From a virus (lineage: Duplodnaviria > Caudoviricetes), in IMG/VR virus record IMGVR_UViG_3300037043_000387, positions 1 to 51,894 of that record: a stretch of 51,894 bases of DNA; one strand, given 5' to 3'. The position numbers were made by a program, and so were the translations under genes. This document shows, piece after piece, positions 8,856 through 49,755 of this stretch (position 1 is its first letter; each line of letters opens with the position of its first letter). The notes beneath the pieces were generated by a model. It was given only the letters and a program-made list of their open reading frames with translations. It was not told where the DNA came from and did no database searches.

Positions 8856-8864
8856 CTGACTTTG

Positions 8865-8903: not shown

Positions 8904-8916
8904 GAGGGGTGTGATC

Positions 8917-9441: not shown

Positions 9442-9453
9442 TCGGAGACGATA

Positions 9454-9759: not shown

Positions 9760-9774
9760 TATCAAGGGGGAAAA

Positions 9775-9990: not shown

Positions 9991-10427
9991 GCTTAAATGA
10001 ATCTACAAAAGCCCGATATTTCGTGACGGGAAATAGAATTTCTCCGTTTGTTTGTGTCCTTGGGGAATGGAAAGATAATGCGGCGCTTATCAGGTCAGTT
10101 CGGGCGGGAGTGCCGATACTGACGCGGGAGATGGTTGAAGCCGAACATGAATTTTGTGCAAACAGTACCAGAAGCACGTTTGTTTACTGGAAATCGGTAA
10201 GGGAAATGCTTTGGACGCATAAAAGCCCTGACCTCGAACATGTCTATGATGTCCTCGTTCAACGTCTGAGGAGCAGGAGCGAGCGGATTAGGAAGGTTTT
10301 GGCACTATCTGTAAAACGCACAGCCGAGAAAGAAGAACAGCGCTCAAGAGATAGAAGCATTGCGGAGCTAAATAAGCTGAGGCGCGAGCCTCTTCACGAG
10401 AGGATTTTATGCAAGAGCCAATCATAA
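9987..10427 (+). CDS. hypothetical protein
   Basis: GTGA overlap, 146 aa. Confidence 0.55.
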   Translation: MSLNESTKARYFVTGNRISPFVCVLGEWKDNAALIRSVRAGVPILTREMVEAEHEFCANSTRSTFVYWKSVREMLWTHKSPDLEHVYDVLVQRLRSRSERIRKVLALSVKRTAEKEEQRSRDRSIAELNKLRREPLHERILCKSQS

Positions 10428-10717: not shown

Positions 10718-12562
10718 ATGGCTTCAAGTCGCAAAGGGATACTGGCGGAGAAGAACGGCCGTTTCCGGATCCCGGCTCAATTCGGTTTTAATTTTGAGGA
10801 AATGGTGGTGGATAATTTCGCCGGCGGCGGTGGTGCCTCGATGGGTATTGAGGCGGGCTTGGGCCGTCCGGTTGATATTGCAATAAATCATGACCCGGGG
10901 GCGGTCGATATGCACCTGGTTAATCATCCACTGACCCGGCATCTGTGTGAATCGGTGTGGGATGTCGATCCGGTGGAGGTTACTGGTGGCCGTCCCGTTG
11001 GCCTGGCGTGGTTTTCTCCGGACTGTAAGCACTTCTCGAAGGCCAAGGGTAGGAAGCCGGTTCAGAAGACGATCAGGGGCTTGGCCTGGGTTGTCTTGAA
11101 GTGGATAGGTAAGAAGCGGCCACGGATTATCATGCTGGAGAATGTCGAGGAGTTTGTTACCTGGGGCCCGCTGGTTAAAAATGGCGATGGTGAACATTAC
11201 CCGTGCCCGAAGCGGCGGGGAAAAACCTTTCAGGCTTTCGTGAAGGCAATCCGGAAGCATGGCTATGAGGTCGAATACCGGGAGATGCGGGCTTGCGATT
11301 ACGGCGCTCCGACATCACGAAAGCGGTTCTTCCTAGTGGCTCGCTGTGACGGTGAGTTGATTGTCTGGCCGGAGCCTACTCACGGGGATCCGAAAAGCGC
11401 AGCGGTGAAGTCAGGGAAGCTCAAACCGTGGCGGTCCGCTGCCGAGTGTATTGAATGGAGTAGGCCGTGTCCCTCAATTTTCCTGTCAAAAGAGGAAGGG
11501 AAGGTTCTGAATGTGCGGCGTCCCCTGGTGGACGCTACTCTACGGAGGATTGCCCGTGGTGTGATGCGCTATGTGGTGGAGAGTCCGGAGCCGTTTATTG
11601 TTTCGTATTACGGAGAGAAAAAAGGCGGTGGTTTCCGTGGGCAGAAGGTCACTGAGCCACTGCGAACGCAGACGACGGAAAACAGGTTTGCCGTGATTGC
11701 TCCTCAGATTGTGGGGATAGATCATCGAGGGGCGGGAGACTCTTCCGTGTGGCCGGGAGACTCTCCGTTGACAACGGTAACGGCTGAGGCCCGGCATGCG
11801 GTCGTAGCGACCTTCCTAGCAAAACACTATAGCGGGGTTGTAGGCTCCAGTATTTCCGCTCCGGTTGGGACAATAACCAGTGTAGACCATCATTCCCTGG
11901 TGGCGGCCAGTCTTATACGGCATTTCGGGGAGAGCGTCGGTCAAGCCGTTGATGCTCCGGCACCTACCGTTATGGCTGATGGCGGCGGAAAGACCGGGAT
12001 CGTAGCGGCCAACCTGGTCCGCAATTTCGGATTATCTCATTCTGCACCTGCAGACTCACCTTTGCTTACTGTCACATCAAAAAAGAAAGATTCTCTGGTA
12101 ACTTCCCACCTCGTGAAGCTTCGCGGTACCTGTAAGGATGGACAGGCGGTTACTGGTACGATGCCCACGGTTACAGCCGGTGGCCTCCACCTGGGGGAAG
12201 TCCGGGCGTTTCTTATCAAGTATTACGGTCAAGGGACGGGGCAATCTCCGGTTGATCCTATTGCTACCATTGTCGGGCGTGACCGTTTTGGTCTGGTGAC
12301 GGTGAAGGGCGAAGAGTACCGGATTGCTGATATCGGTATGCGGATGTTGGCTCCAAGGGAATTGTTCAATGCCCAGGGATTTCCGGCTGATTATATTATC
12401 GACCGGACGGCGGACGGCAAGAAGATCACGGCGACTGAACAGGTCAAGCGCTGCGGGAATTCTGTTCCTCCTGCGTTTGCGGAGGCTTTGGTGAGGGCTA
12501 ATTACCGTACGTCGAAGCAAATTCAGGATGGCAAGGGGCTGCTATGCGCATCCGCACAATAA
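10718..12562 (+). CDS. C5 DNA cytosine methyltransferase
   Basis: DNFAGGGG (motif I), SPDC (IV), ENV (VI), RKRFFLVA (VIII), RELFNAQGFP, CGNSV (X); long repetitive P..T.T variable region. Confidence 0.95.
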   Translation: MASSRKGILAEKNGRFRIPAQFGFNFEEMVVDNFAGGGGASMGIEAGLGRPVDIAINHDPGAVDMHLVNHPLTRHLCESVWDVDPVEVTGGRPVGLAWFSPDCKHFSKAKGRKPVQKTIRGLAWVVLKWIGKKRPRIIMLENVEEFVTWGPLVKNGDGEHYPCPKRRGKTFQAFVKAIRKHGYEVEYREMRACDYGAPTSRKRFFLVARCDGELIVWPEPTHGDPKSAAVKSGKLKPWRSAAECIEWSRPCPSIFLSKEEGKVLNVRRPLVDATLRRIARGVMRYVVESPEPFIVSYYGEKKGGGFRGQKVTEPLRTQTTENRFAVIAPQIVGIDHRGAGDSSVWPGDSPLTTVTAEARHAVVATFLAKHYSGVVGSSISAPVGTITSVDHHSLVAASLIRHFGESVGQAVDAPAPTVMADGGGKTGIVAANLVRNFGLSHSAPADSPLLTVTSKKKDSLVTSHLVKLRGTCKDGQAVTGTMPTVTAGGLHLGEVRAFLIKYYGQGTGQSPVDPIATIVGRDRFGLVTVKGEEYRIADIGMRMLAPRELFNAQGFPADYIIDRTADGKKITATEQVKRCGNSVPPAFAEALVRANYRTSKQIQDGKGLLCASAQ

Positions 12563-34554: not shown

Positions 34555-37500
34555 ATGGACTGGCTTAACGATATCGTTGCGAATGCGAAGAAGCAGGTTC
34601 TGACCGGCGAGGCTGGAAAAGGAATGGCAGAACTGGAAGCCATGGCGACCTTTACTCCTGAACCAACCAATGCCGTGAAGGAATTCGGCAAGGGCGTGGT
34701 GGCGGGGACTCTTCAGCTTCCTCAGATGGCCGGAGGCCTGGTCAAGGTTGCCGGTGATCTTGTCGGTAGCGAAACCGTGGCTGATATCGGTGAAGATGCG
34801 GTGAACTACTGGGGGGAGAAGACGGCCCCCTATACGCCACGTGTCGGATCGATCGAGGACGTGGAAAACGTCGGTGATTTTGTCGATTATGCGGCGGCCG
34901 GCATAGGTTCTCTGGTCCCGACAGTTGCCGCCTCGATGATCGGGGGCGGTGGCGCAGCGGCGATCGCAGGCAAGTCTGCTCTCAAATCGGCGGCAAAGAA
35001 GGAACTGACAAGGGAAGCTACCGAAGCCCTGGTATCCAAGGCTGTTACCCGTGGTGCAATGGCGGGGGCTGGCTCAACGTCCGCCGGTATGGAGATTGGT
35101 TCCATCGGAGCCGATCAGATGGAGGCCGGGACGGAGGATCCGATAAAGGCGATTCTCTATGGTTCCGTGGCTGGTGCATTGGATATTCTCCCGGTTACCA
35201 ACCTGCTGGCAAAGTTTCCGGCATTCAAGTCCCTGCAAAAGATACCGCTTTTCAAGTCACCAGAAGGCAGGGCGTGGTATACACGCGGCGTTATGGAGGG
35301 CTTTAAACAGTCCGGGATGGAAGGTGCCCAGGAAGCGGCACAGACGATGCTGGAACGGGCTGGTGCCAGTCGGGAAGTATTCAGCGACCAAGGCATGATG
35401 GAGATCCTGAACGCCGGTATCATCGGAGCAATTGGCGGCGGCGTCATGGGTGGCGGCGCTGGTGTGTTGAGTGGCAGGGGTAAGGAACGGGTAACGGGGA
35501 ACGAGGAGAACCTTGAGACTCAGACTCCTGGTCTTAATCCGGCTGCCGTTCAACCGGATCCCTTTTCGGATGCCGGTGATCCTCCTCATCCGGTCGTGGA
35601 TCTGGAGTCTCAGGAAAACCCGGTTTTGCCGGAAGCGCCGAAGGGACCGTTGGCCAGGGCGGCGGAGGCTGCTGGTGCTTCAATTTTTCCGGGGATCGGG
35701 GATGTCGTTCCCGGTTCTGTAACCGCTTCCGTTCCGCCGATTGGGGGGCAAACCTCTGATGAGCTGGTTCTTGATGAAGCCCGTGATTGGGCTGAGGAAG
35801 AAATCAAGGCGGGGAAAACTCATTTGATGCGACAGGTGCGGGAGCACCCGAATTCCTATGCCCTGCGGATTCTGGACTCATTCAAGCGGCGGGCAGAAGT
35901 TCCGGTTGTGAACCAGGGTGAGACAGGGCCGAAGTACGCCAATGTTTCCCTGGTCAATCCCGAAACAGGTATAGCCGAGATGGTGACGCCTGCTGAAGTT
36001 ATGGACCGGCTCAAAACTGGCTGGCGTGCTCCGGAAGCACCGTCAAACACTCCTGATGTAGACATGCTTGGCAGCGTTACGGACGCGGATCGTGGCCTTC
36101 TCCAGTCGGCTCGTGACAGGGCCGGTTACTGGGAACGCGGGTCGATGGATAATGGCCAGACAAATAAGAATGAGCTGTTCCCCTGGTTGAAGGATTGGGG
36201 AAAGACCACTCCGGCAGAGGTGTCCAAGGCTATCGGGAATTTCTTGGAAGGTAAGAATCTGGGCGAAGTGCAGCAAAGGCTGGTTACCGCGGCTCTCCAA
36301 TTTGAGCGGGAAAGCAGGCAGCCAAGGGGTGCAGCTCCGGCGCAGGGTATCGGTGACCTGATAGCCGAACGCAGGGGGGTGAAGGGCGTAGCCAAGGAAC
36401 AGGGGGCAGGGAACAGGGGAAATCTTGAATCTCAGGCCTCGAACCTTGAACCTGCTGTTTTGAAGAAGGCACAACTCTATGCTGAGAAGGCGGGGCTTGA
36501 TCTTGATGGTTGGAGCAATGACGAGATTTCCGATTTTGTCGGCAAATATGACTCGTTTGTTAAGAGTAAGTCCCGGGCGGCGGAACCTATCGCCAGTATC
36601 GGGGATCTTATTGCGCAGCGGCGGGCGATGAATCAGAAGAAGGGGACTCCTGGAATTGAAGCAGGGGCACACGAAGCGGCTACCTCTCCCCTTAATGATC
36701 TTGCAGAACCGAGCGAGGCCCAGGTAAAGGCTGGGAACTACCGGAAGGGCCATGTTTCTATTCAGGGCCTTGATATCTCAATCGAGAATCCGGCGGGATC
36801 CGTCCGTTCAGGAAAGGACCAGAACGGAAAACCGTGGTCTACCGCTATTCATCATCATTACGGCTATATCAAAGGAACTGTCGGCAAAGACAAGGACCAT
36901 ATCGATACCTTCATCGGTGACAAGCCGGAAGGCGATCGCGTTTTTGTTGTCGACCAGATTGATCCAAAGAGCGGCACGTTTGACGAGCACAAGGTGATGA
37001 TCGGCTTTGACTCCAAGAATGAGGCGACTCTTGGCTATTTGCGCAACTATGACGATACCGGACAAACTCGCATTGGTGATGTTTCCGAGATGACGATGGA
37101 TGACTTCAAGGCTTGGCTCAAGAGCGGGAAGACTAAGACGCCGGTTGGGCAGTTGAAAAGGGGGGATGAATCACAAGGCAAAGGAAAGCCGGCGGTGCAA
37201 CCTGCCAATGAGGCAAGGGGAAAGATCGTTGCGAAGCTGAAGGCTAGTGGTGCCGATGAAGCGACGGCCGGTAAGATTGCTGATCTGATTGCGGAAGAGT
37301 ATGCCGGTAAGAAGACGCTGGGGCCTGCCTGGCTGGGTAAGAGGATCAAGGAAGGCTGGATTGATAAATGGAAAGTCCAGACTCAGTTGAAAAGCGGAGG
37401 AAAAGAGCTTGAGGATCTGTCACCTAAAGAAATAGCGGCTCTGCCTGAAGGAAAGGTTGATCATCCGGTTACTGCTGCGCTGAAGGGGAAAGGAGCGGAC

Positions 37501-40500
37501 CTTGATAAACAACAGGGAGAAGCGAAGGAAAAAGCGGAAATAGGTGGGGTATCCGACAAAGAGCTTGACGACAAGGCTGCAAATGAGGCGCTGCGGGAGA
37601 AAGTAGCGGACCTTGGTGAAGCTCGATCCACTTCCACCGATGAAGTGCAGGCCAAGAATAAAGAGAGATTCAAAGAGGCTCAACGGAAACACCTGCGTAA
37701 AAAGATTGCCGAGGCAAGATCAGAGGCGGATAAAACCAGGTTGGCAAAACTGTTGGGGAAACTCCAGGAAAGAAAACAAGAGATTACGGAAAAACCAGCA
37801 ACAAGTATTGATGATGAGGTCAAAAACCTTTCTCTGGACGATCTGTCTGCTATGTTTGATGAGGTTGCCGCCGAGTCCCAACCGAAGGTGGAGACCAGAA
37901 CTGTCGAGCAGGCAACGCCGGGAACATCCTCACGCATGTCGTTGAAAGAGACGGTTCACTCGAAGAAGGGCCATACGCTGTTCGTAGTAACGATGAACGA
38001 GCGGGTAGAGCGGGATGAATACGACCGTCTGAACCGTGACGCAAAGCGGACTGGCAACGGCTATTCGTCGTATCGTGGCCACGGCGCTGTCCCTGGTTTC
38101 CAGTTTCTCGATAAAAGCGCAGCTGAAGAGTTTATGCAGCGGTGGGGAGGCGAAGGCAAAGCTGTAGAAACACTCGATGTCTCAAAAGAAGATCCTCAAC
38201 AGGCCCGGACGGCTACAGAGATACTAAAGGAGGCCGCGAGCCAAGGAATAGAAGGAGTGGGCGATGCTGTTACCGGGCTCTATGAGCTTTTCGGCGGTGC
38301 CGCTCTCAAGTCTTTCCCCGGCGGTCTGGATGAAGCGACCTACAGTAAGGCCAAGCCACATTTTCAAGCGGCTTTCGACAGGTTCCGTGAGGCCGGAAAA
38401 GGGATCAAGGAGTTCTTCCGCTTCCTGATTGAACAGTTTGGCCCTGGTATCAAACCGTATTCCATGAAGTTTGTGGCAGAGTTGCAAGGTAATTCCTTCA
38501 AGGAGCTTAACAAAACGAGGGGAAGCTTGACGGAAAGCGCCTCGAATGATAATATAGTTAATGAGAATAGTACAATCAATGAGGAGGGAACGGACCGTGA
38601 CGACACAGGAAATGGCGGCAATGGCCCGCAAGCACTGGAAAGCGTACCATCCGGAGACGTACCGGGAGATGGAGAAACGCGACGACCTGATAAAAGAGTC
38701 GGAAGCAGCGGCAAAACTGACGCAACGCGAGATGGATACATTGATGACGAGCGGGATGACGGTATCGGAAGCCTGGGAAGCGTCGAAGTCCCTGTTCATC
38801 TTCAGCGACCCGTCGAAGGACTACAACCCGGATTAGAACACGTCCCCACTCCGGCGAGTGAGCCACGCAGCCTGTTCCTTTCCGGAGAAAACCCCGGCAA
38901 TTACCGTATTGCGGAATCGGATCGTATCGGCGAAGGTACCCGGGGCCAACGCATCGACAGTAACATGGCCGCAATCCGGATTGCCAAACAGCTGCAGGCC
39001 GAAGGCCGCTATGCTACCCGTACGGAACAATCCGCTCTGGCCCGTTATGTCGGATGGGGCGGACTGAAGAGCGTCTTCGACCCGACATCAACCAAACCCC
39101 AGGACCAGAAAGCCCGCGCAGAACTGGAAAGCCTCTTGACGAAAGAGGAATATTTCGAGGCTCGACAATCAGTCCTTAACGCCCACTACACCTCACGCGA
39201 AGTTATTGGCGCAATCTATGACATGGCCCGTCATTTCGGGTTTTCCGGTGGGAATGTCCTGGAGCCTACCTTTGGCATTGGTAACTTCATCGGCTTCATG
39301 CCCAGCGAACTTGCTGCCTCTTCCAAATGGTACGGCGCTGAACTTGATCCGATTACTGCCGTAATAGGGAAGCATCTCTATCCCGATTCGCAACTCCTCA
39401 ACGTCGGCTTCCAACAAGCCGAATTCCCCTACAACAAATTCGACCTGGCAATCGGCAATCCACCTTTCGGAGACGAAAGGATTACCGACACCAACAAGCG
39501 ACGCTCTGAAATCGACGGCATGAAGATTCACAATTATGTCATTGCCAAGGCCGGAATGCACCTGAAGCCCGGCAAGTTGATGGCAATGGTGGTGACAAGC
39601 CGCTTCCTTGATACGGCCAACCCGGAGGCCAGGGGACACCTTGCCAAAGATTTTTCTTTCCTGGGCGCTATTCGCCTGCCGAACAACGCATTTGCCAAGA
39701 GTGCCGGTACGGACGTGGTAACCGACCTGGTATTTTTCCGCAAACTCATGCCCGACGAAAAGCCGGATCTTTCCGCTGATTGGCTCACGACCGGAGCGAC
39801 GTTAAACAACGAAGACGGCGAGGCGGTCACTCTCAATAAGTATTTTGCTGAACGTCCACACCTGATGATCGGTAAGCCATCCATGCAGGGGTCAATGTAT
39901 GGCGGTGGAGCCAGGGGGGATCAGTTCACCCTTTCGGCCCGTGAAGGACAAGACACCGGCGCCTATATCGAATCCCTTCTGGGTAAGGATTTTGCCTCAC
40001 TGAAGGATGTCCTGAAAGAGCGGGTGAACGACCAGGCCGAGGCGGCCGCTGTCTCTCTTGAGATGAACCGCGAGGATGTGGGTGTCGGAGGATATGTCCC
40101 TGAAGGCAGCGATGTGTTTATGCGCGAAGATGATGATGCTGACGGCAACCCTGTTTTCGTAAAACTTACCGCGGAGACTCAATGGACGGAAAAGACAAAG
40201 TTGGGTAAGACCCGACTGGACCGGATCAAAGGTATGCTGGAATTACGGGGCCAGACTTACAAGCTGATAGAGATGGAGCGGTTCGACCAGCCCGGGATTG
40301 AGCGACACAGGACACAGCTTAACCGGCTCTATGATGCTTTTGTGAAGGCACATGGCTATATTAATGATTCTGCCAATGCCGGACTTATGGCTGATGATGT
40401 CAAAATTGAATTCGGACTGGAGGTGAATTACCGGAAACCCATCAGCGTATCAAGGGCAAAGTCCATGGGGGTAAAACCGCAAGGGGCAAAGGCGGACAAG

Positions 40501-43500
40501 GCTTCACTCCTGAAAGAAAGGGTTTTCTACCCGCAGAAAGAGATAACTACGGCGGCGAATGCCCGCGACGGCTACGGGATATCCCTTTCGGAAAAAGGCC
40601 GTCTCGATCTGGAGTACATTGCCAGACTGACCGGCAAAGAAAAGAAAGAGGTTATCACTGAACTTGCCGATGAAGGATTGATATTGCAAGATCCCGAGAC
40701 ATTGGAATGGGTACAGGAGGATGAATACCTTTCCGGGAACGTCAAGGCCAAGCTGAAGAGCGTACAGCACCGGGAAGGGTATGAACGCAACGCGGCGGCG
40801 CTGAAAAAGGTGCAACCAAAAGATGTGGCCACGGATGATATCTTTGCCGATCTTGGCTCTACCTGGATCCCCGCCAAGGTGTACGAGGACTTTGCCGATC
40901 TGATGGGAATAAAAGGGGCAAAGGCCCATGTTTCCGATGCAACGGGAACCGTTACGATTGTCGATCATAAAAGCATCAACCAGAACGATATGAACGTCTT
41001 GCTGAAGAATGACGACTATACGATTGCGGAACTGTTCAACTTTATTGCCAACAAAAGGGCGGTGGTCGCCTATGACCATGACTCTGAAGGCAAGCGGTTC
41101 GTAAACAAGGACCGGACAAAGCTTCTCGTTCCTATCGCCAAGCGTTTTACCGCTACCTTCCGTGATTGGATAATGGCGGACCCGATGCGTGCCCAGGAGC
41201 TGACAAAGCTCTACAACGACACCCAGAATACCCATGCGGAGAGGGTCTTCGACGGAAAGCACCTGAAAACCGTAGGGGCTAATCCGGCTATCATCATGCG
41301 AAACACTCAGCGTAATGCAGCCTGGAGGATGATCCAGGCTCCCGTTACGCTATTGGATCATGTTGTCGGCTCGGGAAAGACATATACCATCATCACCGGC
41401 ATTATGGAACGCAGGCGACTGGGTTTGTCGCGGAAGCCGCTGGTGGTTGTGCCGAATCATCTGGTTGGCCAGTGGGCGAAAGACTTTCTCAGGCTCTACC
41501 CCGGGGCGAATATCCTTGCGGCTACGGAAAAGGATTTCAGTAAGCCGAACCGTCGACGGCTGTTCTCCCGTATTGCTACCGGTAATTTTGATGCGGTTAT
41601 TGTCGGACATTCATCCTTTGGCTTTATTCCCTTGGAGCAAGAAACGGAAATCAAGTTTGTGCAGGAAGAGATGGAATATCTCGAAAGGGCACTCTCTGAT
41701 GCTGCCTCTGCAGAGGATAAGCGTACCGTCCGTACCCTTACCAACCGCATAGCCAAGAAGCGGGAGCGTATCGCTCGCTTGCAGAACCGGGACCGGGATA
41801 ACGTAGCCACCTTCGAGAGTATGGGGATCGACCACTTGACCGTGGACGAGAGTCATGAATTCAAAAATCTGGAATACTCGACATCGATGCAGAATGTTAC
41901 CGGCATGGGTTCCCCGGCCGGCGCAAAGAAATCTTTCGACCTCTACGCAAAGATACGTTATTTGCGGTCCGAAGACGGCGCTGTTACTTTTGCCACGGGT
42001 ACACCAATAAGCAATTCGCTGGTGGAGATGTATACCCTGCTCAGGTATTTAAACCTGGAAGGACTGAAGGAGCGCCGACTCGATGCCTTTGACGCCTGGG
42101 CCAAGTCATACGCCGGAATAGAGACGCGCATAGAGTATACCGCTACACAGAAGCTGAAAGAACGCGGCGTGATGGCGGAATTCAATAACCTGCCCGAATT
42201 GTTGCAGCTCTATACAGAATTTGCCGACATTGTTTCCATGTCTGACTTGAAGAGGATTTATGCGGAACAGATCCGGGAGAGCAACCGGGCAACCGGCGCC
42301 AACGAACGGGAAGAATTCCCGGTACCGAAGGTGAAAGATGGTGCCAGGGTTCTGGATATCGCTGATCCGCTTGCCAGCCAGCGGGAATTCATGGACTACC
42401 TGGTTGCCAGGGCAACGAGGCTTGAGCGACTGGGCGGCCAGAACGACCCGAAGATAGATAACCATTTGTGGGTGATGAACGACGCTCGCAAGATGGCGCT
42501 CGATATTCGCCTGGTGGACCCGTTGGCTCCGGCAGATCCAAACAACAAGATTGGCCGGTCTGCTAAAAACATCAAGCGGATTTACGACAAGTGGACTGCC
42601 GACAAGGGAACTCAGCTGGTTTTCTGTGACCTGTCGACGCCTGCGAAGCAATCTGACAAGGATGCAAAGAAGTTTATCAAGGATTCTCTCACGGTTTTAG
42701 CAATGCAAAAGGACACCAGGGTCCAGGCGGTGCTGGATTCTTTGACGTGGCGGGAACAGTGGTCATACCTGAAAAACAGGATGGAAGCAAAGGTTGAGGA
42801 GTTGAATAATGCCCTGCAGGAAAACTCGAACCTTTCCGACGCTGATGAAAAATCTCTGAACAACTGGATGAACGACCTGGAAAAATACCTCGAAGAGGTG
42901 AGCGACGAGGACGAGGCGGCACTCACGACTGCCGACACCGGCTTTTCCGTCTATGACGATTTGAAATCCCAGCTTGTGTCGATGGGTATTCCTGAAAACG
43001 AGATCCGGTTTATCCATGAAGCGAATACGAAAGATAAGAAAGAAGAACTGTTCGGCATGGTCAATTCCGGAGAGGTGCGGGTGCTCCTTGGTTCGAGTAA
43101 GAAGATGGGCGCCGGCACCAATGTTCAAGAACGAGTCGTTGCGCTTCATCATCTTGATGCTCCGTGGCGGCCATCCGATGTGGAGCAGCGTGAAGGCCGG
43201 GCGGTTCGGCAGGGGAATACGCTGTATGACCGTGATCCTGATGGTTTCGAGCTGGAACTGATTGCATATTCCACCGGAAATACTTTTGATGCAGTCATGT
43301 GGCAGGTCTTGGCCCGCAAGGCTGAAATGCTTGAGCAGTTCCGGAGTGGTGTGCGCAGCGTCCAGGAAGGGCAATCGGATGCCGACAGCTACGCAACCTT
43401 TATGGCGGAATCAACCGGGAATCCTGCGTTTAAGGAAAAATACCGGCTGGAGAATGCAATAGAAGAACTCGAAGGGATGCAGAGAAACGTGCAGGCCAGA

Positions 43501-46500
43501 CGAAGCGCGGCAGAGCGGCTGGCCGGACAGAGAGAAGAGCTTACCAACAAGACAAAGCTAGGTATTGACAGGGCGGCTGCGGACCTGGAAGCGGTAGCGG
43601 AAGCTGAGGGGTTTGTTTTTGAAGGCGTGACCTATGCCGAAGATCTGGATGAAGCGCAGGCGGCGGCGAGGGAAGAGTATAACGCTGCATGGGCGATGTA
43701 TGAGAAAGAGCTGAAGGAGCATAATGGTCGTCGCACTGCGGCAATAGAAGCTCAGATGATAAAAGAGTTCGGCTTTGACAAGTACGAACTTCGAGGCAAT
43801 GAGGTTGAGAAGATTGCCATAAAGAAATGGGACGAAGAGCATAAAGCCGAGAAGCCGGTTGCTCCCAAAGAAGTGACCCTGACCGGACTTGCAAAGACCT
43901 CCCAAGCGGCAAAACTCGGTCGTCTCATTGAGAAGCACCTTGATGAAATGGACGAAGGGGAGATTGTTGTAAAGTATGGCGGACTTAACGTGGCCTTCAC
44001 GGTCGACGAGGCGCGGTGGGGAAATAGCAGCTTAAAGAAAGGTGAACGAAAGACCAATGATTATTCAATAACGGTAGGCAATTATTCTGAGTCATATCAG
44101 GCAAAACATCCTTCCTCCAAGGAAATCGTGAGCGTATTGCGGAACGGTGCAATCAAGCGACAGTTAGCAAAAGAGCTTGGAGACGCCAAGAGGCAGGCGG
44201 AATATACCTCTAAATCGATTGCCGATGCAGAGCGGATACTGGATAAGGTGAAATTCAGTGATGCTGCAGAGCTGGAAGAGAAGCGCAGCAGGTATGTGGA
44301 AGTAGTCGAAGAGGTCAACCGGCTGGAAGCGGAGATGGAGACCCGCCGTGAAAACGAGAGTAATCCTTATATTGACAGGGATAGCAGGCGTTTTAGTGGT
44401 TATGACAGGAGATCATCTGCGGCCCAGGTGCAAGAAAGTGGTGCAGCAGGCGAGACAAGATATTCCGTTACTGCCGATCAGCCAACGTATGGACTCCCTG
44501 CTGCCGACATTCAAACCGCATTTGAACCTGTTTACAAGAACATGCCCAATTCCCCGCCCTGGCGAGTAGTCCAGACGACGGCGGAATTGCCGAAGCGGGC
44601 CCTGGATAATGCCGCGAAGCGGGGGATCCCGCAAAGGATGTTGCAGGCTGTCTATCTGGGGAATGAGGTTGTTTATGTTGCTGACAACTTCCGCTCGATG
44701 GAAGAGGCTAAAGAGGTCATTCTGGAAGAGGTTGTTGTTCATCATGGCCTGCGTGGAATCATGGCAAAGGACGCCTACGAAAAGCACATGCTTCAGGCGG
44801 CGCTCTGGTATGCCAATAAGCGCAATGCCGAGTGGAAGGATTTGGCCGAACAGTACAAGTTGGACCTGAAGGACCGGGATGACCGGATTGAGGCTGCCGA
44901 GGAGATGCTGGGCCGTGATGCTCGAACCGGGATGGACTCGACTATCCTTTCCAAGGTAATAGCCGCGGTAAAAGAATTTCTCCGGAGTGTCGGTTGGAAT
45001 GCAGGCTATGGAGACGCGGAGATCCGGGAGCTGCTGGGTAAGGCCCGGAGGTTTGTGGAAGGGAAAGAGCAGGGGGCAGCGGACAGGGAACAGGGGACGG
45101 GGATTGACTACGGTGCCATGCTGCGGATTCTCCGGGAACAGGGTGTTACTGATGATCAGTTGGAGGCGTTTGCTAACTGGCAGCCGGGAGCGGCGAGGTA
45201 TGCGGCCGCGTGGCATGGTAGTCCTCATGATTTTGTTGCGTTCAAGTCGCAGCATATTGGTAGTGGGGAAGGGGCCCAGGCTTACGGGTATGGGTTGTAT
45301 TTTGCCGGGAATAAGGAAGTTGCGGAGTATTACAAGAAGGCAGTGGCAGCGCTGCGCACGAATATGTCAGAGCTTGCTGAAACATTAAAAGGGGTGGACT
45401 CGGGAGCGTACAGTCTTATAGAGAAAGCACTTACAAAAGATGATTTTCATGGGACGGGTCCGTTAGCAGTAGGAAGTATTGTACAGTCTTTAATGTCCGG
45501 GCAACCATCAATGAAAGTGGTTAATCTTTTAGGAGAAGATTTCAAGCGTGTATATGACGCGGTTGACTCATTGCCGTCGAAAGGAAAACTCTACCACGTT
45601 GAACTAGCACCGTCTGAGGATGAGTATCTTCTTTGGGATAAACATCTCTCTGAGCAGAGTGAGAAGGTGAAGGCGGCGATTGCAAAGGGCATCAAGAATC
45701 ATCAGGATGAAGTCCAGAAAGATTTAATGTCTTACTATGCTGAGGAGAATAAAGATAAAGCTGTAGGAGGAACTTTTTATAAGACATTGACGAGTATGTT
45801 GGGAGATGGCACTTCCACCGATGGGCGCAAAGAAGCGTCAGAATACCTCCATTCCCTCGGCATAAGAGGAATCAAGTACCTTGATGGAACAAGCAGAAAC
45901 AAGTCTGGTTATAAAATAATGTGGGAGAACGGTCAGACATCGTTTGAGCATGATAAAGCAGTGGCTGAGAGTGTCGCTAAAACCTTCGAGGCAAAATATG
46001 GTAAAGCAACTATAACCCCTGATGATAGGGGTGCTGACTACAACTACGTCATTTTTGATGAGTCTGATGTTTCCATCACAGCAAAGTTCGCCTTGGCCCG
46101 TCTTGAAGACGTAAAAGGCCAGATCGTTGACAAGGGTGTTTCCCTCAATACCAGCGAACGCGAGGTTCTGGAAGCGGATAAGGCGAAGGCCATTGAGGCA
46201 ATCGAAACCACTGTACGGGATTACGACGAGCCGGGCCGGTTACTGTTCCGGGCGTTTTACGAGGCCGATCAGCATCAGAGTCCCGGCGTGGTTCCGTTTA
46301 ATCCGGATCGTGGACATTTTGCGGCTGGTGAGGATCTTCGGGGATCCTGGTGGACAACCTCCTACGCCACTGCCCAGGAGATAGCCTGGAGCAAGGGGCG
46401 AGATGGCCGGACCGTGAAAATTGTTGCGCTGCCGGTTGATAAGCTGCCAGCTGGTAGGGTATTTATCCAGAACACGAACCCGCCGGGCTTTGTCTATGAT

Positions 46501-49500
46501 CTGTTTGTCGGACTTCCGGCTGATGTTCCTATGCGTGATGTTCAGGAGATGCCGGTTGATACGGGTATCCGCTTTGCCCTGGCTGATCGTTTCACCGGAT
46601 ATGTCGGGGAAATGAAGGGCGGCGACGTCTGGAAACGGATTGCCAGACTGTTAAATCCTTTCGACTGGTCGCGATTGAAAGGGATGATCGAGAACGTTAC
46701 TCCGCAATCGATCATGAACGGTGCAGCGAGCTTCCTCCGTAATCCTATCTTTGAGGCGGAAGCGGACGAAAACAAGAAGCCATTCGTTGAAAATGGAGTG
46801 AAGAGGGAGCAGACGAAACTGGATTATTTGCTGCGCTTCCTTGGCTGGGATGGACCGTCCGCCGATAATCCGAATATCATGGAGCGACTGAAAAAGACTT
46901 ATTCCCAGTGGGAAAGCGGAGACAGGACAACGGGTTGGGGCCGGATCACAGACGGGTACCAGAAACTTTCCGCTGCGGATCGTAAGGGTGTTGACTGGTT
47001 ATTATACCAGGGAGACATGCAGGGACGGGTGTTTAAGGATTTTGAGACGGCGGTGAAGGATCCGCGAGTCTCTAAGGGTAAACCGACTGAGACAGCCTTT
47101 ACCATGTACCAGCAGGTTCGGAATCATATTGATACCGTTGTTGCCGATACCGTGGAGGCTATCTCTCGCCAGTTTATGTACGACGCAGGCTTGCCTGACG
47201 TGGTTATTGAAAAGCACCTCAGCGATTACCGCAACAGATTGGCCGAGCGGCCCGGTTGGCTGCCGCGTAACCATGGCGACGGTGACCACCAGGTGAATGT
47301 CTACCAGCATATTACCGGCCTGAAATGGGAGACTCGTGGTGATAAGGATTCCATGCAGGCGCTTCTTCCCTATTATCCGAGCAAGGAAGTTGCTGACGAA
47401 ATCAAGAAACTTGCTACAGGATATGGCTTAAAATACCGCAACCTGGCGGGTGGTCAGCAGTTAATCACTACCGACAAGAACGCAAGCAGCCGCTTCAAAA
47501 AAGAGGTTGCTAAACTGAAAGGGCAGATAGAGGCAGCCACAGGAGACGAGAAATCCAAACTGGAGCTACAGCTGGACGCGGTAGAGCGGCAGCGAATTTT
47601 TGCCGAGTCAATGCCCGCCGACCAGATCAAACGATTCCGAACCAAGGCGGCGGAGATTATTCCCAAGCTGCAGCTTCGTAATGAACTGGGGATTCGTGAG
47701 CGGGAAAAGGCATTGAAGCAGGCACTTGAAGATGGCGAGTCGGAATCAACCATTAATATGTTAAAGGATGAGTTGAAGAAACTTGGCGATGGTCGAATCC
47801 GGGTCAAGGTCTACATGAGGTTGAAGGAAACCAAAAGCCGGGCGGAAAAACATAAGGCCGAGGTTGAAAAGGATCTGCAGAAGTTCATGCCGGGGAATTA
47901 CCTCGACTGGGCCAAGTATGAAGTTGAGCAGCGTTTTTCCGATCAGATCTCCGAAGATATGTACGGCGATATGAAAAATGATTTTGCCATGGAGCAGGGC
48001 CAGCTGGCTGCAATCAATAAGGCGGCAGCGCACCAGGAAATCAGCAAGAAGGAAGCGGCCGCGTTACGGCAGACAATCCTTCAATCAACAGCTGAAGTTT
48101 TGATGGCTCGCGGCGCTGGCGCTCACCGGATCCGCCGGGCAGAGTATCTGATTGAGGGTTACGACGCCGAGAATACCGTCGATGCCTATCATGATTATAT
48201 GACCGGTACCAGCGGGATGTTGTCCAAGGCCCGGTATGCGCAGGAACAGTTTGAGCAGTTCCGCTACGCAAAGCCTGAAGTCAAGCGGTGGGCTCATACC
48301 TATATTGTGAATAACCTCAGAAATATGGGGTTTGCCGACCAGGTGAGCGGTAACATGCGAGCCCTGGCTACGCTTACCTACCTGGGCTTCAAGGTCTCGT
48401 CCATGTTGATTAACTCTACTCAGCCGTGGACCTTGGGAGTAGCCGAGCTGGGGCGGCATACGAAGCGAAGTGCTGTGTGGGCAATCGGCAAGGCGCAAAC
48501 GGATATCGTGATCGGCAAACTCTCCGAGTCGGAAAAGAGGCTTTTCGCTTCGGAGATATTCAAACTGCAGGAGATGGAAACAGCGGTACACGAGATGAGC
48601 GGACAGCAGGAGGGTTTTACCGGCAAGGTCTCGCGCTTCATGCACACGTTGACCGATAAGGCCTTGATGCCGTTTCAGGAAGTCGAATTGTTGAACAGAA
48701 AGACGGTGATCCTGGCGGCCTATCGAACATTCCGGGCGGACGGAATTTCCCGGAATGAAGCACTGCAAAAGGCACTGCAAGTCAATCGGACCGTGAACTT
48801 CGAAATGTCCCGGGCGAATCTTCCCGGCTTTGCCCAGAAACCTTTGGGGCGGACCGTGTATGCACTCCAGTCATTCATGTGGAATAACTGGAATTGGATA
48901 TACAACCGCATGACCAGCGGGGAGAAGGAAGACATGAAGGCCCTGCTACGGTATGCGGTGGCCATGGGCATTATCGGCGGAGCAATGGCCCTGCCGGGTG
49001 GCGATGAACTGGACAAGCTCTATCAGACACTTTTCGGGGAAAGCCCGAAGCTGGCACTGCAAAAGTGGACAGCGAAACATGCGAAGGAATATGGTTCGCT
49101 GGGCGAGATGGTTAATGGCTTTGCCTGGCATGGGGCGGCGAGTGCGGCCGGGGTGAATATCTCCAATGCGATCCGCTTGCAGATCCCCATTGTTTCGCCG
49201 TTGATTGGTGGCGAGTCGCTCCCGGACGCGGCCGGCGGGGTCTTTACCGGTTTGGTACAGAAAGGCAGCCGGGCCACGGTGGCGGCAAGCCGTGGCGATA
49301 TGTACCGGGCACTGGAAAATCTTTCCCCGGAAGCCTTGGCCGGGGCAATGCGGGCCTATCGCATGTCGACCAAGGGTGCTACAACGACGTCCGGGAAGAT
49401 CCTCTTCGATGAGGACGGCAAGCCGATGAAGTATACCGCGGGCGAAGCGGTGAAAAGAACGCTGGGCTTTCAGCCAACACGGGTTTCCAAAAGAAGCGAC

Positions 49501-49755
49501 CTCACTAATATTGAGTACGGATTGACGGCTCACTGGAAAGAAGAGCGGGGCGATCTGCTGGCAAAGTTGAGAATTGCCACGGGAGACGAGCGGAAGAAAG
49601 TAATGCTCAAGATCATGCGCTTTAACCGCGATTTGCGCGAGTCTCAGGCTGCAGGTCTGGTCCCGATAATCAAGGAGCAAACTATCCGTCAGGCTCTCGT
49701 GTCAAAACCGAACAAGGGCAAGATGGCCTGGGAAAAAAATCAGTTGAACGATTGA
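34555..49755 (+). CDS. giant polyvalent internal virion protein (DarB-like): pyrophosphatase-like, N6-MTase, SNF2 helicase, peptidase-like and ART-like domains
   Basis: AGNYRKGH...HYGYIKGT...DKDHID...FDEHKV; VLEPTFGIGNF and IGNPPF; DHVVGSGKT, VDESHEFKN, ATGTPISNS, EQREGRAVRQGN; EEVVVHHGL; WHGSPH...GEGAQAYGYGLYFA...NYVIFD. Confidence 0.9.
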   Translation: MDWLNDIVANAKKQVLTGEAGKGMAELEAMATFTPEPTNAVKEFGKGVVAGTLQLPQMAGGLVKVAGDLVGSETVADIGEDAVNYWGEKTAPYTPRVGSIEDVENVGDFVDYAAAGIGSLVPTVAASMIGGGGAAAIAGKSALKSAAKKELTREATEALVSKAVTRGAMAGAGSTSAGMEIGSIGADQMEAGTEDPIKAILYGSVAGALDILPVTNLLAKFPAFKSLQKIPLFKSPEGRAWYTRGVMEGFKQSGMEGAQEAAQTMLERAGASREVFSDQGMMEILNAGIIGAIGGGVMGGGAGVLSGRGKERVTGNEENLETQTPGLNPAAVQPDPFSDAGDPPHPVVDLESQENPVLPEAPKGPLARAAEAAGASIFPGIGDVVPGSVTASVPPIGGQTSDELVLDEARDWAEEEIKAGKTHLMRQVREHPNSYALRILDSFKRRAEVPVVNQGETGPKYANVSLVNPETGIAEMVTPAEVMDRLKTGWRAPEAPSNTPDVDMLGSVTDADRGLLQSARDRAGYWERGSMDNGQTNKNELFPWLKDWGKTTPAEVSKAIGNFLEGKNLGEVQQRLVTAALQFERESRQPRGAAPAQGIGDLIAERRGVKGVAKEQGAGNRGNLESQASNLEPAVLKKAQLYAEKAGLDLDGWSNDEISDFVGKYDSFVKSKSRAAEPIASIGDLIAQRRAMNQKKGTPGIEAGAHEAATSPLNDLAEPSEAQVKAGNYRKGHVSIQGLDISIENPAGSVRSGKDQNGKPWSTAIHHHYGYIKGTVGKDKDHIDTFIGDKPEGDRVFVVDQIDPKSGTFDEHKVMIGFDSKNEATLGYLRNYDDTGQTRIGDVSEMTMDDFKAWLKSGKTKTPVGQLKRGDESQGKGKPAVQPANEARGKIVAKLKASGADEATAGKIADLIAEEYAGKKTLGPAWLGKRIKEGWIDKWKVQTQLKSGGKELEDLSPKEIAALPEGKVDHPVTAALKGKGADLDKQQGEAKEKAEIGGVSDKELDDKAANEALREKVADLGEARSTSTDEVQAKNKERFKEAQRKHLRKKIAEARSEADKTRLAKLLGKLQERKQEITEKPATSIDDEVKNLSLDDLSAMFDEVAAESQPKVETRTVEQATPGTSSRMSLKETVHSKKGHTLFVVTMNERVERDEYDRLNRDAKRTGNGYSSYRGHGAVPGFQFLDKSAAEEFMQRWGGEGKAVETLDVSKEDPQQARTATEILKEAASQGIEGVGDAVTGLYELFGGAALKSFPGGLDEATYSKAKPHFQAAFDRFREAGKGIKEFFRFLIEQFGPGIKPYSMKFVAELQGNSFKELNKTRGSLTESASNDNIVNENSTINEEGTDRDDTGNGGNGPQALESVPSGDVPGDGETRRPDKRVGSSGKTDATRDGYIDDERDDGIGSLGSVEVPVHLQRPVEGLQPGLEHVPTPASEPRSLFLSGENPGNYRIAESDRIGEGTRGQRIDSNMAAIRIAKQLQAEGRYATRTEQSALARYVGWGGLKSVFDPTSTKPQDQKARAELESLLTKEEYFEARQSVLNAHYTSREVIGAIYDMARHFGFSGGNVLEPTFGIGNFIGFMPSELAASSKWYGAELDPITAVIGKHLYPDSQLLNVGFQQAEFPYNKFDLAIGNPPFGDERITDTNKRRSEIDGMKIHNYVIAKAGMHLKPGKLMAMVVTSRFLDTANPEARGHLAKDFSFLGAIRLPNNAFAKSAGTDVVTDLVFFRKLMPDEKPDLSADWLTTGATLNNEDGEAVTLNKYFAERPHLMIGKPSMQGSMYGGGARGDQFTLSAREGQDTGAYIESLLGKDFASLKDVLKERVNDQAEAAAVSLEMNREDVGVGGYVPEGSDVFMREDDDADGNPVFVKLTAETQWTEKTKLGKTRLDRIKGMLELRGQTYKLIEMERFDQPGIERHRTQLNRLYDAFVKAHGYINDSANAGLMADDVKIEFGLEVNYRKPISVSRAKSMGVKPQGAKADKASLLKERVFYPQKEITTAANARDGYGISLSEKGRLDLEYIARLTGKEKKEVITELADEGLILQDPETLEWVQEDEYLSGNVKAKLKSVQHREGYERNAAALKKVQPKDVATDDIFADLGSTWIPAKVYEDFADLMGIKGAKAHVSDATGTVTIVDHKSINQNDMNVLLKNDDYTIAELFNFIANKRAVVAYDHDSEGKRFVNKDRTKLLVPIAKRFTATFRDWIMADPMRAQELTKLYNDTQNTHAERVFDGKHLKTVGANPAIIMRNTQRNAAWRMIQAPVTLLDHVVGSGKTYTIITGIMERRRLGLSRKPLVVVPNHLVGQWAKDFLRLYPGANILAATEKDFSKPNRRRLFSRIATGNFDAVIVGHSSFGFIPLEQETEIKFVQEEMEYLERALSDAASAEDKRTVRTLTNRIAKKRERIARLQNRDRDNVATFESMGIDHLTVDESHEFKNLEYSTSMQNVTGMGSPAGAKKSFDLYAKIRYLRSEDGAVTFATGTPISNSLVEMYTLLRYLNLEGLKERRLDAFDAWAKSYAGIETRIEYTATQKLKERGVMAEFNNLPELLQLYTEFADIVSMSDLKRIYAEQIRESNRATGANEREEFPVPKVKDGARVLDIADPLASQREFMDYLVARATRLERLGGQNDPKIDNHLWVMNDARKMALDIRLVDPLAPADPNNKIGRSAKNIKRIYDKWTADKGTQLVFCDLSTPAKQSDKDAKKFIKDSLTVLAMQKDTRVQAVLDSLTWREQWSYLKNRMEAKVEELNNALQENSNLSDADEKSLNNWMNDLEKYLEEVSDEDEAALTTADTGFSVYDDLKSQLVSMGIPENEIRFIHEANTKDKKEELFGMVNSGEVRVLLGSSKKMGAGTNVQERVVALHHLDAPWRPSDVEQREGRAVRQGNTLYDRDPDGFELELIAYSTGNTFDAVMWQVLARKAEMLEQFRSGVRSVQEGQSDADSYATFMAESTGNPAFKEKYRLENAIEELEGMQRNVQARRSAAERLAGQREELTNKTKLGIDRAAADLEAVAEAEGFVFEGVTYAEDLDEAQAAAREEYNAAWAMYEKELKEHNGRRTAAIEAQMIKEFGFDKYELRGNEVEKIAIKKWDEEHKAEKPVAPKEVTLTGLAKTSQAAKLGRLIEKHLDEMDEGEIVVKYGGLNVAFTVDEARWGNSSLKKGERKTNDYSITVGNYSESYQAKHPSSKEIVSVLRNGAIKRQLAKELGDAKRQAEYTSKSIADAERILDKVKFSDAAELEEKRSRYVEVVEEVNRLEAEMETRRENESNPYIDRDSRRFSGYDRRSSAAQVQESGAAGETRYSVTADQPTYGLPAADIQTAFEPVYKNMPNSPPWRVVQTTAELPKRALDNAAKRGIPQRMLQAVYLGNEVVYVADNFRSMEEAKEVILEEVVVHHGLRGIMAKDAYEKHMLQAALWYANKRNAEWKDLAEQYKLDLKDRDDRIEAAEEMLGRDARTGMDSTILSKVIAAVKEFLRSVGWNAGYGDAEIRELLGKARRFVEGKEQGAADREQGTGIDYGAMLRILREQGVTDDQLEAFANWQPGAARYAAAWHGSPHDFVAFKSQHIGSGEGAQAYGYGLYFAGNKEVAEYYKKAVAALRTNMSELAETLKGVDSGAYSLIEKALTKDDFHGTGPLAVGSIVQSLMSGQPSMKVVNLLGEDFKRVYDAVDSLPSKGKLYHVELAPSEDEYLLWDKHLSEQSEKVKAAIAKGIKNHQDEVQKDLMSYYAEENKDKAVGGTFYKTLTSMLGDGTSTDGRKEASEYLHSLGIRGIKYLDGTSRNKSGYKIMWENGQTSFEHDKAVAESVAKTFEAKYGKATITPDDRGADYNYVIFDESDVSITAKFALARLEDVKGQIVDKGVSLNTSEREVLEADKAKAIEAIETTVRDYDEPGRLLFRAFYEADQHQSPGVVPFNPDRGHFAAGEDLRGSWWTTSYATAQEIAWSKGRDGRTVKIVALPVDKLPAGRVFIQNTNPPGFVYDLFVGLPADVPMRDVQEMPVDTGIRFALADRFTGYVGEMKGGDVWKRIARLLNPFDWSRLKGMIENVTPQSIMNGAASFLRNPIFEAEADENKKPFVENGVKREQTKLDYLLRFLGWDGPSADNPNIMERLKKTYSQWESGDRTTGWGRITDGYQKLSAADRKGVDWLLYQGDMQGRVFKDFETAVKDPRVSKGKPTETAFTMYQQVRNHIDTVVADTVEAISRQFMYDAGLPDVVIEKHLSDYRNRLAERPGWLPRNHGDGDHQVNVYQHITGLKWETRGDKDSMQALLPYYPSKEVADEIKKLATGYGLKYRNLAGGQQLITTDKNASSRFKKEVAKLKGQIEAATGDEKSKLELQLDAVERQRIFAESMPADQIKRFRTKAAEIIPKLQLRNELGIREREKALKQALEDGESESTINMLKDELKKLGDGRIRVKVYMRLKETKSRAEKHKAEVEKDLQKFMPGNYLDWAKYEVEQRFSDQISEDMYGDMKNDFAMEQGQLAAINKAAAHQEISKKEAAALRQTILQSTAEVLMARGAGAHRIRRAEYLIEGYDAENTVDAYHDYMTGTSGMLSKARYAQEQFEQFRYAKPEVKRWAHTYIVNNLRNMGFADQVSGNMRALATLTYLGFKVSSMLINSTQPWTLGVAELGRHTKRSAVWAIGKAQTDIVIGKLSESEKRLFASEIFKLQEMETAVHEMSGQQEGFTGKVSRFMHTLTDKALMPFQEVELLNRKTVILAAYRTFRADGISRNEALQKALQVNRTVNFEMSRANLPGFAQKPLGRTVYALQSFMWNNWNWIYNRMTSGEKEDMKALLRYAVAMGIIGGAMALPGGDELDKLYQTLFGESPKLALQKWTAKHAKEYGSLGEMVNGFAWHGAASAAGVNISNAIRLQIPIVSPLIGGESLPDAAGGVFTGLVQKGSRATVAASRGDMYRALENLSPEALAGAMRAYRMSTKGATTTSGKILFDEDGKPMKYTAGEAVKRTLGFQPTRVSKRSDLTNIEYGLTAHWKEERGDLLAKLRIATGDERKKVMLKIMRFNRDLRESQAAGLVPIIKEQTIRQALVSKPNKGKMAWEKNQLND
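38527..38555 (+). promoter_or_regulatory. internal sigma70 promoter inside the giant gene
   Basis: TTGACG 38527-38532, 17 bp, TAATAT 38550-38555, with extended -10 TG at 38547-38548. Confidence 0.65.
38597..38836 (+). CDS. nested out-of-frame 79-aa protein, TnpV-like
   Basis: GAGGAGG RBS 38581-38587, GTG 38597; MTTQEMAAMARKHWKAYHPETYREMEKRDDL...MTSGMTVSEAWEASK; +1 frame relative to the giant ORF. Confidence 0.7.
   Translation: MTTQEMAAMARKHWKAYHPETYREMEKRDDLIKESEAAAKLTQREMDTLMTSGMTVSEAWEASKSLFIFSDPSKDYNPD

Follow-up and report, generated by a model that had tools for sequence, protein, structure and literature searches.

A probable TnpV-like gene nested inside the DarB-like giant gene of a provirus

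How is a stretch of DNA to be read when a very long open reading frame (ORF) and a short, complete one both run across it? The question is raised by bases 38597-38836 of IMG/VR record IMGVR_UViG_3300037043_000387, a Caudoviricetes sequence whose whole length of 51,894 nucleotides (nt) is referred to here as the window. At this position a 5066-codon gene for a DarB-like polyvalent protein holds, in its +1 frame, a 79-codon ORF that a first-pass annotation had described as a gene within a gene, encoding a separately promoted TnpV-like microprotein just ahead of a methyltransferase (MTase)-helicase module. Family homology, a confident predicted fold, +1 nesting kept among relatives and signs of selection on both frames support the description of a gene within a gene. 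Judged from these comparisons, the nested gene is very probably real, selected and separately initiated. The fuller reading, in which the dual-coded bases provide both a linker of the giant protein and a nested gene whose product is an accessory of the methylase-helicase, is considered likely.

The nested frame and its codon signature

The elements on which the argument turns are the following.

38597..38836, + strand: probable nested gene of 79 codons and a TAG stop, read in +1 relative to the giant frame, with an acidic, predicted four-helix TnpV-like product
38596..38835, + strand: the same bases in the giant frame, residues 1348-1427, a linker rich in G, D, E, R and S (translation and structure model)
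38527..38555, + strand: sigma-70-like promoter candidate, TTGACG-17-TAATAT with TG before the -10 hexamer (9/12 match)
38581..38587, + strand: Shine-Dalgarno (SD) sequence GAGGAGG, 9 nt ahead of the GTG (read directly)

The +1-frame open stretch extends over 38558..38833 and is closed by TAG at 38834-38836; it offers two starts, ATG 38561 (91 codons) and GTG 38597 (79 codons), and the window's product has an isoelectric point (pI) of 5.1. The promoter candidate consists of TTGACG at 38527-38532, a 17-nt spacer and TAATAT at 38550-38555, with the TG at 38547-38548, and the G+C content falls to 0.42 at 38425-38574, an AT-rich dip around these hexamers. The near-consensus promoter, the GAGGAGG and the 79-codon ORF are thus all present where the first-pass annotation had placed them, and the giant ORF is uninterrupted, as it had also stated: 34555..49755 is a single open frame of 5066 residues with no stop and no break. 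The further observation that the giant frame reads here as a G/D/R-rich linker is borne out by a translation rich in G, D, E, R and S and by a structure model that is disordered. The linker encoded at 38596..38835 joins the upstream modules of the giant protein to its MTase-helicase module. The small ORF had been said to end about 50 nt before that module, and the match to phrog_10089 indeed resumes 45 nt after the small stop.

Neither the length of the small ORF nor its promoter match stands out when taken alone. The +1 frame of the giant gene contains 6 open stretches of at least 92 codons, so the length is ordinary and was rejected as evidence for a gene. Promoter matches of this grade are likewise not above chance, with 11 such sites in the giant gene versus 9.7 +/- 3.4 in shuffles; the candidate is the only one of the 11 with TG before its -10 hexamer.

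The codon usage of the small ORF is what sets it apart. Codon frequencies for the scoring were taken from the window's own genes, and the statistic was the log-likelihood of the coding reading minus that of the shifted reading. The small frame scores as coding (log-likelihood -313.9 vs -328.7 and -331.5 for the shifted readings), and the giant frame over the small gene scores as a shifted frame (-324.0 as coding vs -315.5). In a scan that covered the +1 frame of the giant gene, the value for the small ORF, +14.8, was reached by 0 of 4788 other 79-codon segments (mean -8.8, standard deviation 4.1, maximum 1.8), and its codon signature is unique within that frame. Other long out-of-frame ORFs lie on the + strand of the giant gene at 37613-37945, 41360-41752 and 44987-45388 (110-133 codons). 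No +1 segment outside 38300-38900 carries a coding signature (maximum 1.8), which argues against those in the +1 frame being genes.

Protein family, predicted fold and the distant link to TnpV

When 1.84 billion cluster representatives were searched by phmmer with the small protein, 135 proteins matched at E<=1e-3, 17 of them at E<=1e-10, with a best E of 9e-19. Family members are mostly 74-130 residues long, and the match starts at their residue 2-8, equivalent to GTG 38597 in the window. In an alignment of 29 sequences W14 is invariant, and H13, P19, A39, T42, M46, A59 and W60 are nearly so. The closest relatives, P0139-P0141, share 77-80% identity with the window's protein. The exact 79-residue sequence is present in the ESM Atlas, and a 55-residue part of it stands in the protein collection as P0142; some gene callers therefore did call the small frame. 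The family is acidic, with a median pI of 5.1 and 78% of 109 members below 6.

Structure prediction separates the two readings of the same bases. AlphaFold2, given an alignment of 109 rows, folds the small protein into four helices (residues 3-17, 19-27, 31-51 and 56-67) with a mean predicted local distance difference test score (pLDDT) of 94.7 and a predicted TM-score (pTM) of 0.82, in keeping with the helical, globular character proposed at first pass. The giant-frame reading, modelled from a shallow 5-row alignment, gives a pLDDT of 52.9, a pTM of 0.10 and no secondary structure; across the small gene, the giant frame models as a disordered linker.

The relationship to TnpV is distant and has to be traced through other proteins. 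The Pfam family PF14198 (TnpV) was not matched at E<=10 by the 79-residue or the 91-residue form of the window's protein, nor in a six-frame search of the record, and the closest relative, P0139, is also without a match; Pfam as a whole returned no match for the 79-residue product. A PDB sequence profile search gave nothing significant, Foldseek against PDB gave nothing at E<=0.001, and the best hit of a wide VIA-align fold search, Z 7.9 to 2apl_A, falls in a range common for helical models; these searches brought up no solved structure of a TnpV protein. The small product does match phrog_938 (2185 positions) at 2075-2151, with E 1.5e-8 for the 91-residue form. The sole match in a fold search of BFVD is Q8W6J4_2 (TMq 0.84, E 1.8e-3), which we take to be the protein of Sinorhizobium phage PBC5 that bears the same TnpV-like domain.

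Intermediate sequences provide the connection. Sub-threshold matches to PF14198 occur in 37 of 109 family members (best 1.5e-4), and the A4 family profile matches P0182 (3e-14) and P0188 (4e-10), both of which pass the PF14198 cut-off of 27 bits, at 28.9 and 27.9 bits. In BLASTP the window's protein and P0182 are 32% identical across 73 aligned residues (pairwise E 2e-8). A cluster of the ESM Atlas in which 99% of members are TnpV additionally superposes on 70 residues, 3-72, of the Atlas's own model at TM 0.80 by query, a comparison in which both sides are predictions and the score lies below the tool's family-naming bar. These matches point to a real but distant homology. The protein is called TnpV-like here, and not a member of the Pfam family, because its own PF14198 score is below threshold; of the resemblance noticed at first pass, the homology through P0182 and P0188 stands and a PF14198 match of the window's own protein does not.

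Members of the family also occur alone. Standalone, non-nested copies were found in two bacterial contigs from metagenome-assembled genomes (MAGs), L021 and L022, and the family therefore does not depend on the overlap. Chromosomal copies are rare: of 401 genomes of the class of G001, one was matched at E<=1e-5, namely G001, the query's own genome. The copy in L021, an Alphaproteobacteria MAG contig, is a 223-residue protein (5001-5672) with an N-terminal TnpV-like domain and a hydrophobic, membrane-like tail, and a fragment of MmeI N-terminal/helicase-spacer type lies nearby on the opposite strand.

Conserved layout, selection on two frames and start signals

The nested layout recurs well beyond the window. 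In tblastn searches of 50,697 phage records the domain was found in 3 phages with the window's protein as query and in 21 records with its relative P0042, and it occurs further in one phage-like plasmid and four further viral contigs. The comparison rests on 17 loci, the window and 16 that were opened, with SJM3 and GenBank duplicates of RefSeq records left out; the set of nested loci includes the window, 9 named phages, 1 phage-like plasmid and 4 viral contigs. Spurious 26-residue matches from single-protein scans of metagenome, viral and genome contigs (L008, L018-L020) were excluded from all counts. In 16/17 loci a larger ORF, open for 1427 to 5066 codons, encloses the small ORF in its +1 frame; these lengths are lower bounds in most loci because the outer ORFs mostly run off the fetched DNA. 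The third frame is closed in 17/17. The hosts comprise Erwinia, Klebsiella, Vibrio, Pseudomonas, Agrobacterium, Ochrobactrum/Brucella and Microcystis. By our own grouping the loci represent some 11-12 distinct lineages, with close sets formed by Pavtok/PEp14/Stean, LASTA/SopranoGao and POI1126/plasmid.

Position is conserved along with frame. The distance from the small stop to the methylase motif xVGWGG that follows is 56-81 giant residues in 15/17 loci (71 in the window), and the sequence upstream varies; with nesting in 16/17 loci, this agrees with the expectation that the +1 ORF is conserved at the same position in DarB-like giant genes. In the other two loci, Atu_ph08 and PBC5, the distance is 224-239 residues, with an extra domain between.

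PBC5 (L002, NC_003324.1 23257-29490) is also the locus that is not nested: its domain stands in frame at the end of an upstream 2180-residue protein, gp22, with the -1 frame open over the downstream part. That ORF, open from L002:2760, continues into the methylase-helicase, and RefSeq carries no annotation over about 1.6 kb (L002:3337-4967). The arrangement is either a genuine split or a one-base frameshift error in a 2001-era sequence. In Pseudomonas phage Itty13 (L003, NC_070969.1 4117-10296), gp01-gp03 are annotated opposite to a frame that is open for >2059 codons, and this frame holds the nested TnpV-like ORF followed, 63 residues later, by the xVGWGG motif; the strand assignment of the record in 4117-10296 looks wrong. 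The inner gene is unmarked by any feature in 10/10 annotated records opened that have it nested.

Substitutions between relatives follow the small frame across the overlap. Over four independent pairs, 98/90/156 changes fall at codon positions 1/2/3 of the small frame (chi-square P = 1.2e-5). Numbered in the giant frame, and for the three pairs with downstream counts, the overlap gives 119/73/64 vs 130/65/336 in the downstream MTase region (P = 6e-23), so that the periodicity of substitution shifts to the small frame exactly across the overlap. In 14/14 pairs the small frame exceeds the giant frame in amino-acid identity over a 70-codon core, for example 40/70 vs 21/70 between the window and L005 and 45/70 vs 27/70 between Pavtok and SopranoGao. 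A short PVHLQ-type motif is kept in the giant-frame linker across the clade (window 38542-38892), owing to conservation of the LFIF segment of the small frame and not to selection on the linker.

The giant frame leaves its own trace, in the choice of synonymous codons. When the small protein is held fixed and synonymous codons are sampled for it randomly according to local usage, 0.0-12.2% of draws leave the giant frame open, with <4% for 10/11 lineages and 0.2% for the window (P = 0.002). Openness is so rare in these draws that the codon choice of the small gene is evidently constrained to keep the giant frame open. Both frames thus appear to be maintained by selection.

These results bear on a simpler layout of three genes, a front protein, the small gene and a DarB-like gene, in which the giant ORF would be an artefact or a recent accident. 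Standalone and split layouts do exist (L021, L022, PBC5), and the DNA contigs of one public run break within the small ORF: in run X20, Logan contigs stop at 38646 and resume at 38675, and a contig from an RNA library begins at 38668. The interruption suggests an assembly break, possibly strain variation, and the stretch is present in many DNA runs at a word share of 0.95-1.00. The giant frame is, moreover, open in 16/17 loci, among them isolates that were sequenced independently and have it annotated as a single coding sequence (CDS); its chance openness under random synonymous codons is 0.000-0.122 per lineage; and no in-frame ATG, GTG or TTG follows the small stop until about giant residue 1471. 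The three-gene layout is accordingly rated highly improbable.

At the other extreme, the ordinary length of the ORF, matched by 6 open +1 stretches of at least 92 codons, would suit a decaying relic or a chance ORF without a product. Homology down to E 9e-19, a pLDDT of 94.7, substitutions concentrated at the wobble position, a conserved start and SD sequence and the unique codon signature leave this reading with a negligible probability.

The signals for translation are conserved in a way that argues for initiation within the giant gene. An ATG or GTG stands at the same alignment column in all loci, the in-frame forms included, and in 16/16 loci scanned it is preceded at 4-16 nt by an SD-like core, which as background occurs at 0.118 of all positions and ahead of 0.069 of the remaining ATG/GTG codons in the +1 frame; counted by lineage, the core is found in 11/11 (binomial P = 6e-11). 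The start region of L023, a member of the window's clade, reads AAGGAAGG. At the level of sequence, the proposal that the small gene has its own translation start is upheld by this conservation. Upstream, the small frame is closed by a stop that in the window precedes the GTG by 13 codons and in 9/17 loci precedes the start by only 2-7, and stops this near the start leave almost no room for entry by frameshifting.

This last observation weighs on another explanation, a programmed +1 ribosomal frameshift that would yield a shorter product, namely the front of the giant protein ending in a TnpV-like domain, as in PBC5 gp22. In-frame forms of this kind are known from the 2180-residue gp22 itself and from P0004, P0007, P0077 and P0118, and phrog_938 has the domain at 2075-2151 of its 2185 positions. 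The stops just described, a start codon kept at its column even in the in-frame forms, the SD-like core in 16/16 loci and the lack of a slippery or stop-stimulated shift motif in 38558-38597, inspected by eye only, all oppose it, and we regard such a frameshift as very unlikely.

Evidence for a separate promoter is restricted to the window's clade. In 4/5 of its members the small start is preceded, at 51-70 nt, by a sigma-70-like site, which scores 9/12 with TG in the window, 10/12 in L006, 11/12 in L007 and 12/12 in L023 (a perfect TTGACA-17-TATAAT). The background on the + strand of the clade's giant ORFs is 16 sites in 42,914 nt, nearly all of them 9/12, which corresponds to P = 0.039 per locus and to 1.1e-5 for 4/5 if the loci were independent. 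The -35 hexamer of the window sits in another giant-frame phase than that of L006, L007 and L023. A functional internal promoter in this clade is, on these sequence comparisons, slightly favoured. The claim of separate promotion is thus plausible within the clade and does not extend to the 12 loci of the other clade. Three metatranscriptome runs, which may include DNA, yielded contigs at >=99% identity over 38668-39043, 38726-38878, 39039-39220 and 39060-39210; one of them bridges the small stop. They give no start, strand or level, and missing cover further upstream does not count as evidence.

Host gene, possible role and comparison with known systems

The gene that encloses the small ORF, and the module that follows it, are placed as follows.

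34555..49755, + strand: giant gene, 5066 codons, polyvalent DarB-like (ORF list, translation and profile matches)
38881..42999, + strand: start of the DarB-type MTase-SNF2 helicase module, given as the extent of the tested piece (phrog_10089 match)

Matches to phrog_10089 ('DarB-like antirestriction') span the whole length of the giant protein, one piece with a reported E of 0 and 1300 bits; the match that restarts 45 nt past the small stop does so at residue 16 of a piece beginning at 38836. Pfam recognizes InPase, Eco57I-type MTase, SNF2-rel_dom, ResIII and Helicase_C, and the motifs YVGWGG, NPPF and a helicase motif stand at residues 1498, 1635 and 2271. The MTase and helicase parts of the 'MTase/helicase/ART' protein named at first pass are therefore matched in Pfam; its ART part is not, as ART-PolyVal is reached only below threshold (E 0.009, 17.2 bits vs a cut-off of 31.2). 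Terminase large subunit, portal, major head and head-closure genes lie upstream on the same strand and an endolysin gene downstream, which makes the giant gene the last gene of the virion module. With an N6-adenine MTase fused to an SNF2/SF2 helicase in a multi-module protein encoded in the virion module, the host gene is DarB-like. The window record is classed as a provirus, and blastn of its positions 37800-39600 against phages gave no match. A separate gene for a 614-residue DNA methyltransferase (phrog_116, E 9e-98) lies at 10718-12562, upstream of the packaging genes, so the prophage has another methylase besides that of the giant protein.

In the favoured reading, bases 38597-38836 would be read in two frames, as a disordered linker of the giant protein and as a complete, acidic four-helix protein of 79 residues. 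The linker would connect the DarB-type methylase-helicase module of a polyvalent protein packaged in the virion to the modules in front of it, ribosomes would initiate at GTG 38597 by means of the internal GAGGAGG, and from the clade's sigma-70-type promoter at 38527-38555 the small gene would probably also be transcribed separately from the late operon. Fusion of flanking genes that read through an intact small gene in another frame is the most likely origin of the giant gene; the small frame would be the older coding frame, since standalone relatives exist.

The small protein may work with the ensuing methylase-helicase module, either as a helper in assembly or packaging or as a subunit that gates its activity. 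The suggestion stems from conserved position, as the MTase-helicase module is the only constant neighbour, and such a partnership is put forward tentatively, at somewhat below even chances. The first-pass proposal of an inhibitor, antitoxin or chaperone of the MTase/helicase/ART protein, possibly made during lysogeny, is a hypothesis. The order of genes in the Desulfuromonadales MAG contig L022 (500-5276) is counted as support for a methylase-helicase link: a 606-residue N6_N4 DNA methylase precedes an 887-residue ResIII helicase, and the standalone 92-residue family member starts 14 nt after the helicase gene, forming a restriction-modification-like trio with the small gene last. An upstream 'pre-domain' was rejected as a general partner, the upstream sequence differing among loci. 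A complex prediction of the small protein with giant residues 1215-1325 and 1435-2050 scored 0.00 and carries no weight either way.

A stronger version of the partnership, which we hold to be rather unlikely, is that the TnpV-like gene and the DarB-type methylase-helicase form an old two-gene unit that was repeatedly welded into giant genes, with the small protein a dedicated partner of the injected enzyme. It might then act as a chaperone for loading or ejection or, as a gate, hold the methylase-helicase inactive within the producing or lysogenic cell, and the clade's internal promoter would allow its timing or level of production to differ from that of the giant protein.

Conversely, the small gene might be real and separately expressed yet have a role unrelated to the giant protein, as an excision or recombination-directionality factor or a regulator, in line with what was postulated for the TnpV of Tn4451, its placement being an accident of fusion. 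The family's links to Pfam TnpV through P0182 and P0188 (both above the 27-bit cut-off, with profile matches of 3e-14 and 4e-10) are compatible with such a role, the internal promoter would permit expression outside the late operon, for instance in a lysogen, and the record is classed as a provirus. The position before the MTase motif is, however, kept in 15/17 loci despite changes in the upstream modules, some of the loci belong to phages whose records show no sign of lysogeny, and an acidic protein (median pI 5.1) would be unusual for a DNA-binding, Xis-type factor; the function of TnpV is itself only postulated, as far as the part of PMC3158075 consulted goes. An unrelated role is on balance judged improbable.

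Several points tell against the dual-coded accessory gene that we prefer. The bias toward the small frame is weak in the close pair Pavtok-PEp14 (7/8/11 substitutions; 59/70 vs 57/70 identical), and the 17 loci amount to only about 11-12 lineages. The window's protein has no functional match in Pfam, NCBIfam or solved structures. The in-frame copies at the C-terminus of an upstream polyvalent chain, in PBC5, P0004, P0007, P0077 and P0118, imply that the domain can also work inside a larger chain. The promoter of the window, taken alone, is an ordinary 9/12 match; a sigma-70-like site is absent from 1/5 clade members and from 12/12 loci of the other clade; and the recurrences within the clade represent about 2 independent events and not 4, because L006, L007 and L023 share one homologous arrangement.

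Should the dual-coded, nested gene be confirmed, giant polyvalent genes now recorded as single CDSs would contain an inner gene that routine annotation misses. The locus would offer a rare case of dual coding, with a conserved, structured protein hidden in a 'disordered linker' and measurable selection on both frames, and it suggests that genes can fuse by a route in which an intact gene is read across. Were the small protein a partner of DarB-type enzymes, it would provide a handle on the folding, packaging and control of very large anti-restriction proteins. The internal promoter, if real, would be an instance of regulatory signals overprinted on coding sequence.

Embedded genes are a known phage architecture, as Rz1 in Rz demonstrates; for such a gene inside a giant polyvalent gene no paper was found. 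A literature search of partial coverage, supplements excluded, turned up none describing a nested TnpV-like gene in DarB-like giant genes. DarB-like polyvalent proteins were catalogued by Iyer et al. 2017 (PMC5512222); word searches of the text available found 'overlapping', 'frameshift' and 'TnpV' absent there, and did not turn up the inner gene in the portion searched of PMC9024508.

The closest parallel in layout is Rz1, embedded in Rz in the two-component spanins of lambda type, for which layout variants and missed annotation are described in the consulted part of PMC6139136. Here as there, a whole inner gene lies inside an outer gene on the same strand, in the +1 frame and with its own start; embedded, overlapped and separated layouts are found among relatives, and gene callers usually miss the inner gene. 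The differences lie in the host gene, here a 15-kb polyvalent virion gene and not a 150-codon lysis gene, and in the inner product, here a predicted cytoplasmic helical protein whereas Rz1 is a lipoprotein. The inner frame at this locus additionally appears to be the older one, with the outer frame reading it as a linker.

The TnpV of Tn4451-type mobilisable transposons (PF14198) is likewise a small helical protein of similar length, with a function in Tn4451 described as only postulated in the section of PMC3158075 seen. The context differs, a phage virion gene here and not a transposon beside the large serine recombinase TnpX; the small gene sits between head/connector genes and an endolysin, outside a Tn4451-type context, in a window that was not scanned as a whole for recombinases. 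Elements with TnpV genes have also been reported inserted in snf2 genes, among the integrative and conjugative elements of Streptococcus suis, in the part of PMC9815147 consulted.

The host gene, finally, resembles P1 darB. In the excerpt of Gonzales et al. 2022 (PMC9024508) consulted, DarB is packaged in the capsid, protects incoming DNA from restriction and carries a signal for packaging at its N-terminus, and according to the passages seen of PMC9144972 the JC1 homologue, gp69, was detected in virions by mass spectrometry. Both systems have a dyad of methylase and SNF2 helicase encoded by a gene of the virion module, and relatives of the giant gene are annotated 'DarB-like antirestriction'. 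They differ in how the module begins: in P1, DarB opens with a packaging signal of its own at the N-terminus, whereas at this locus about 1430 residues of other modules precede the fused module.

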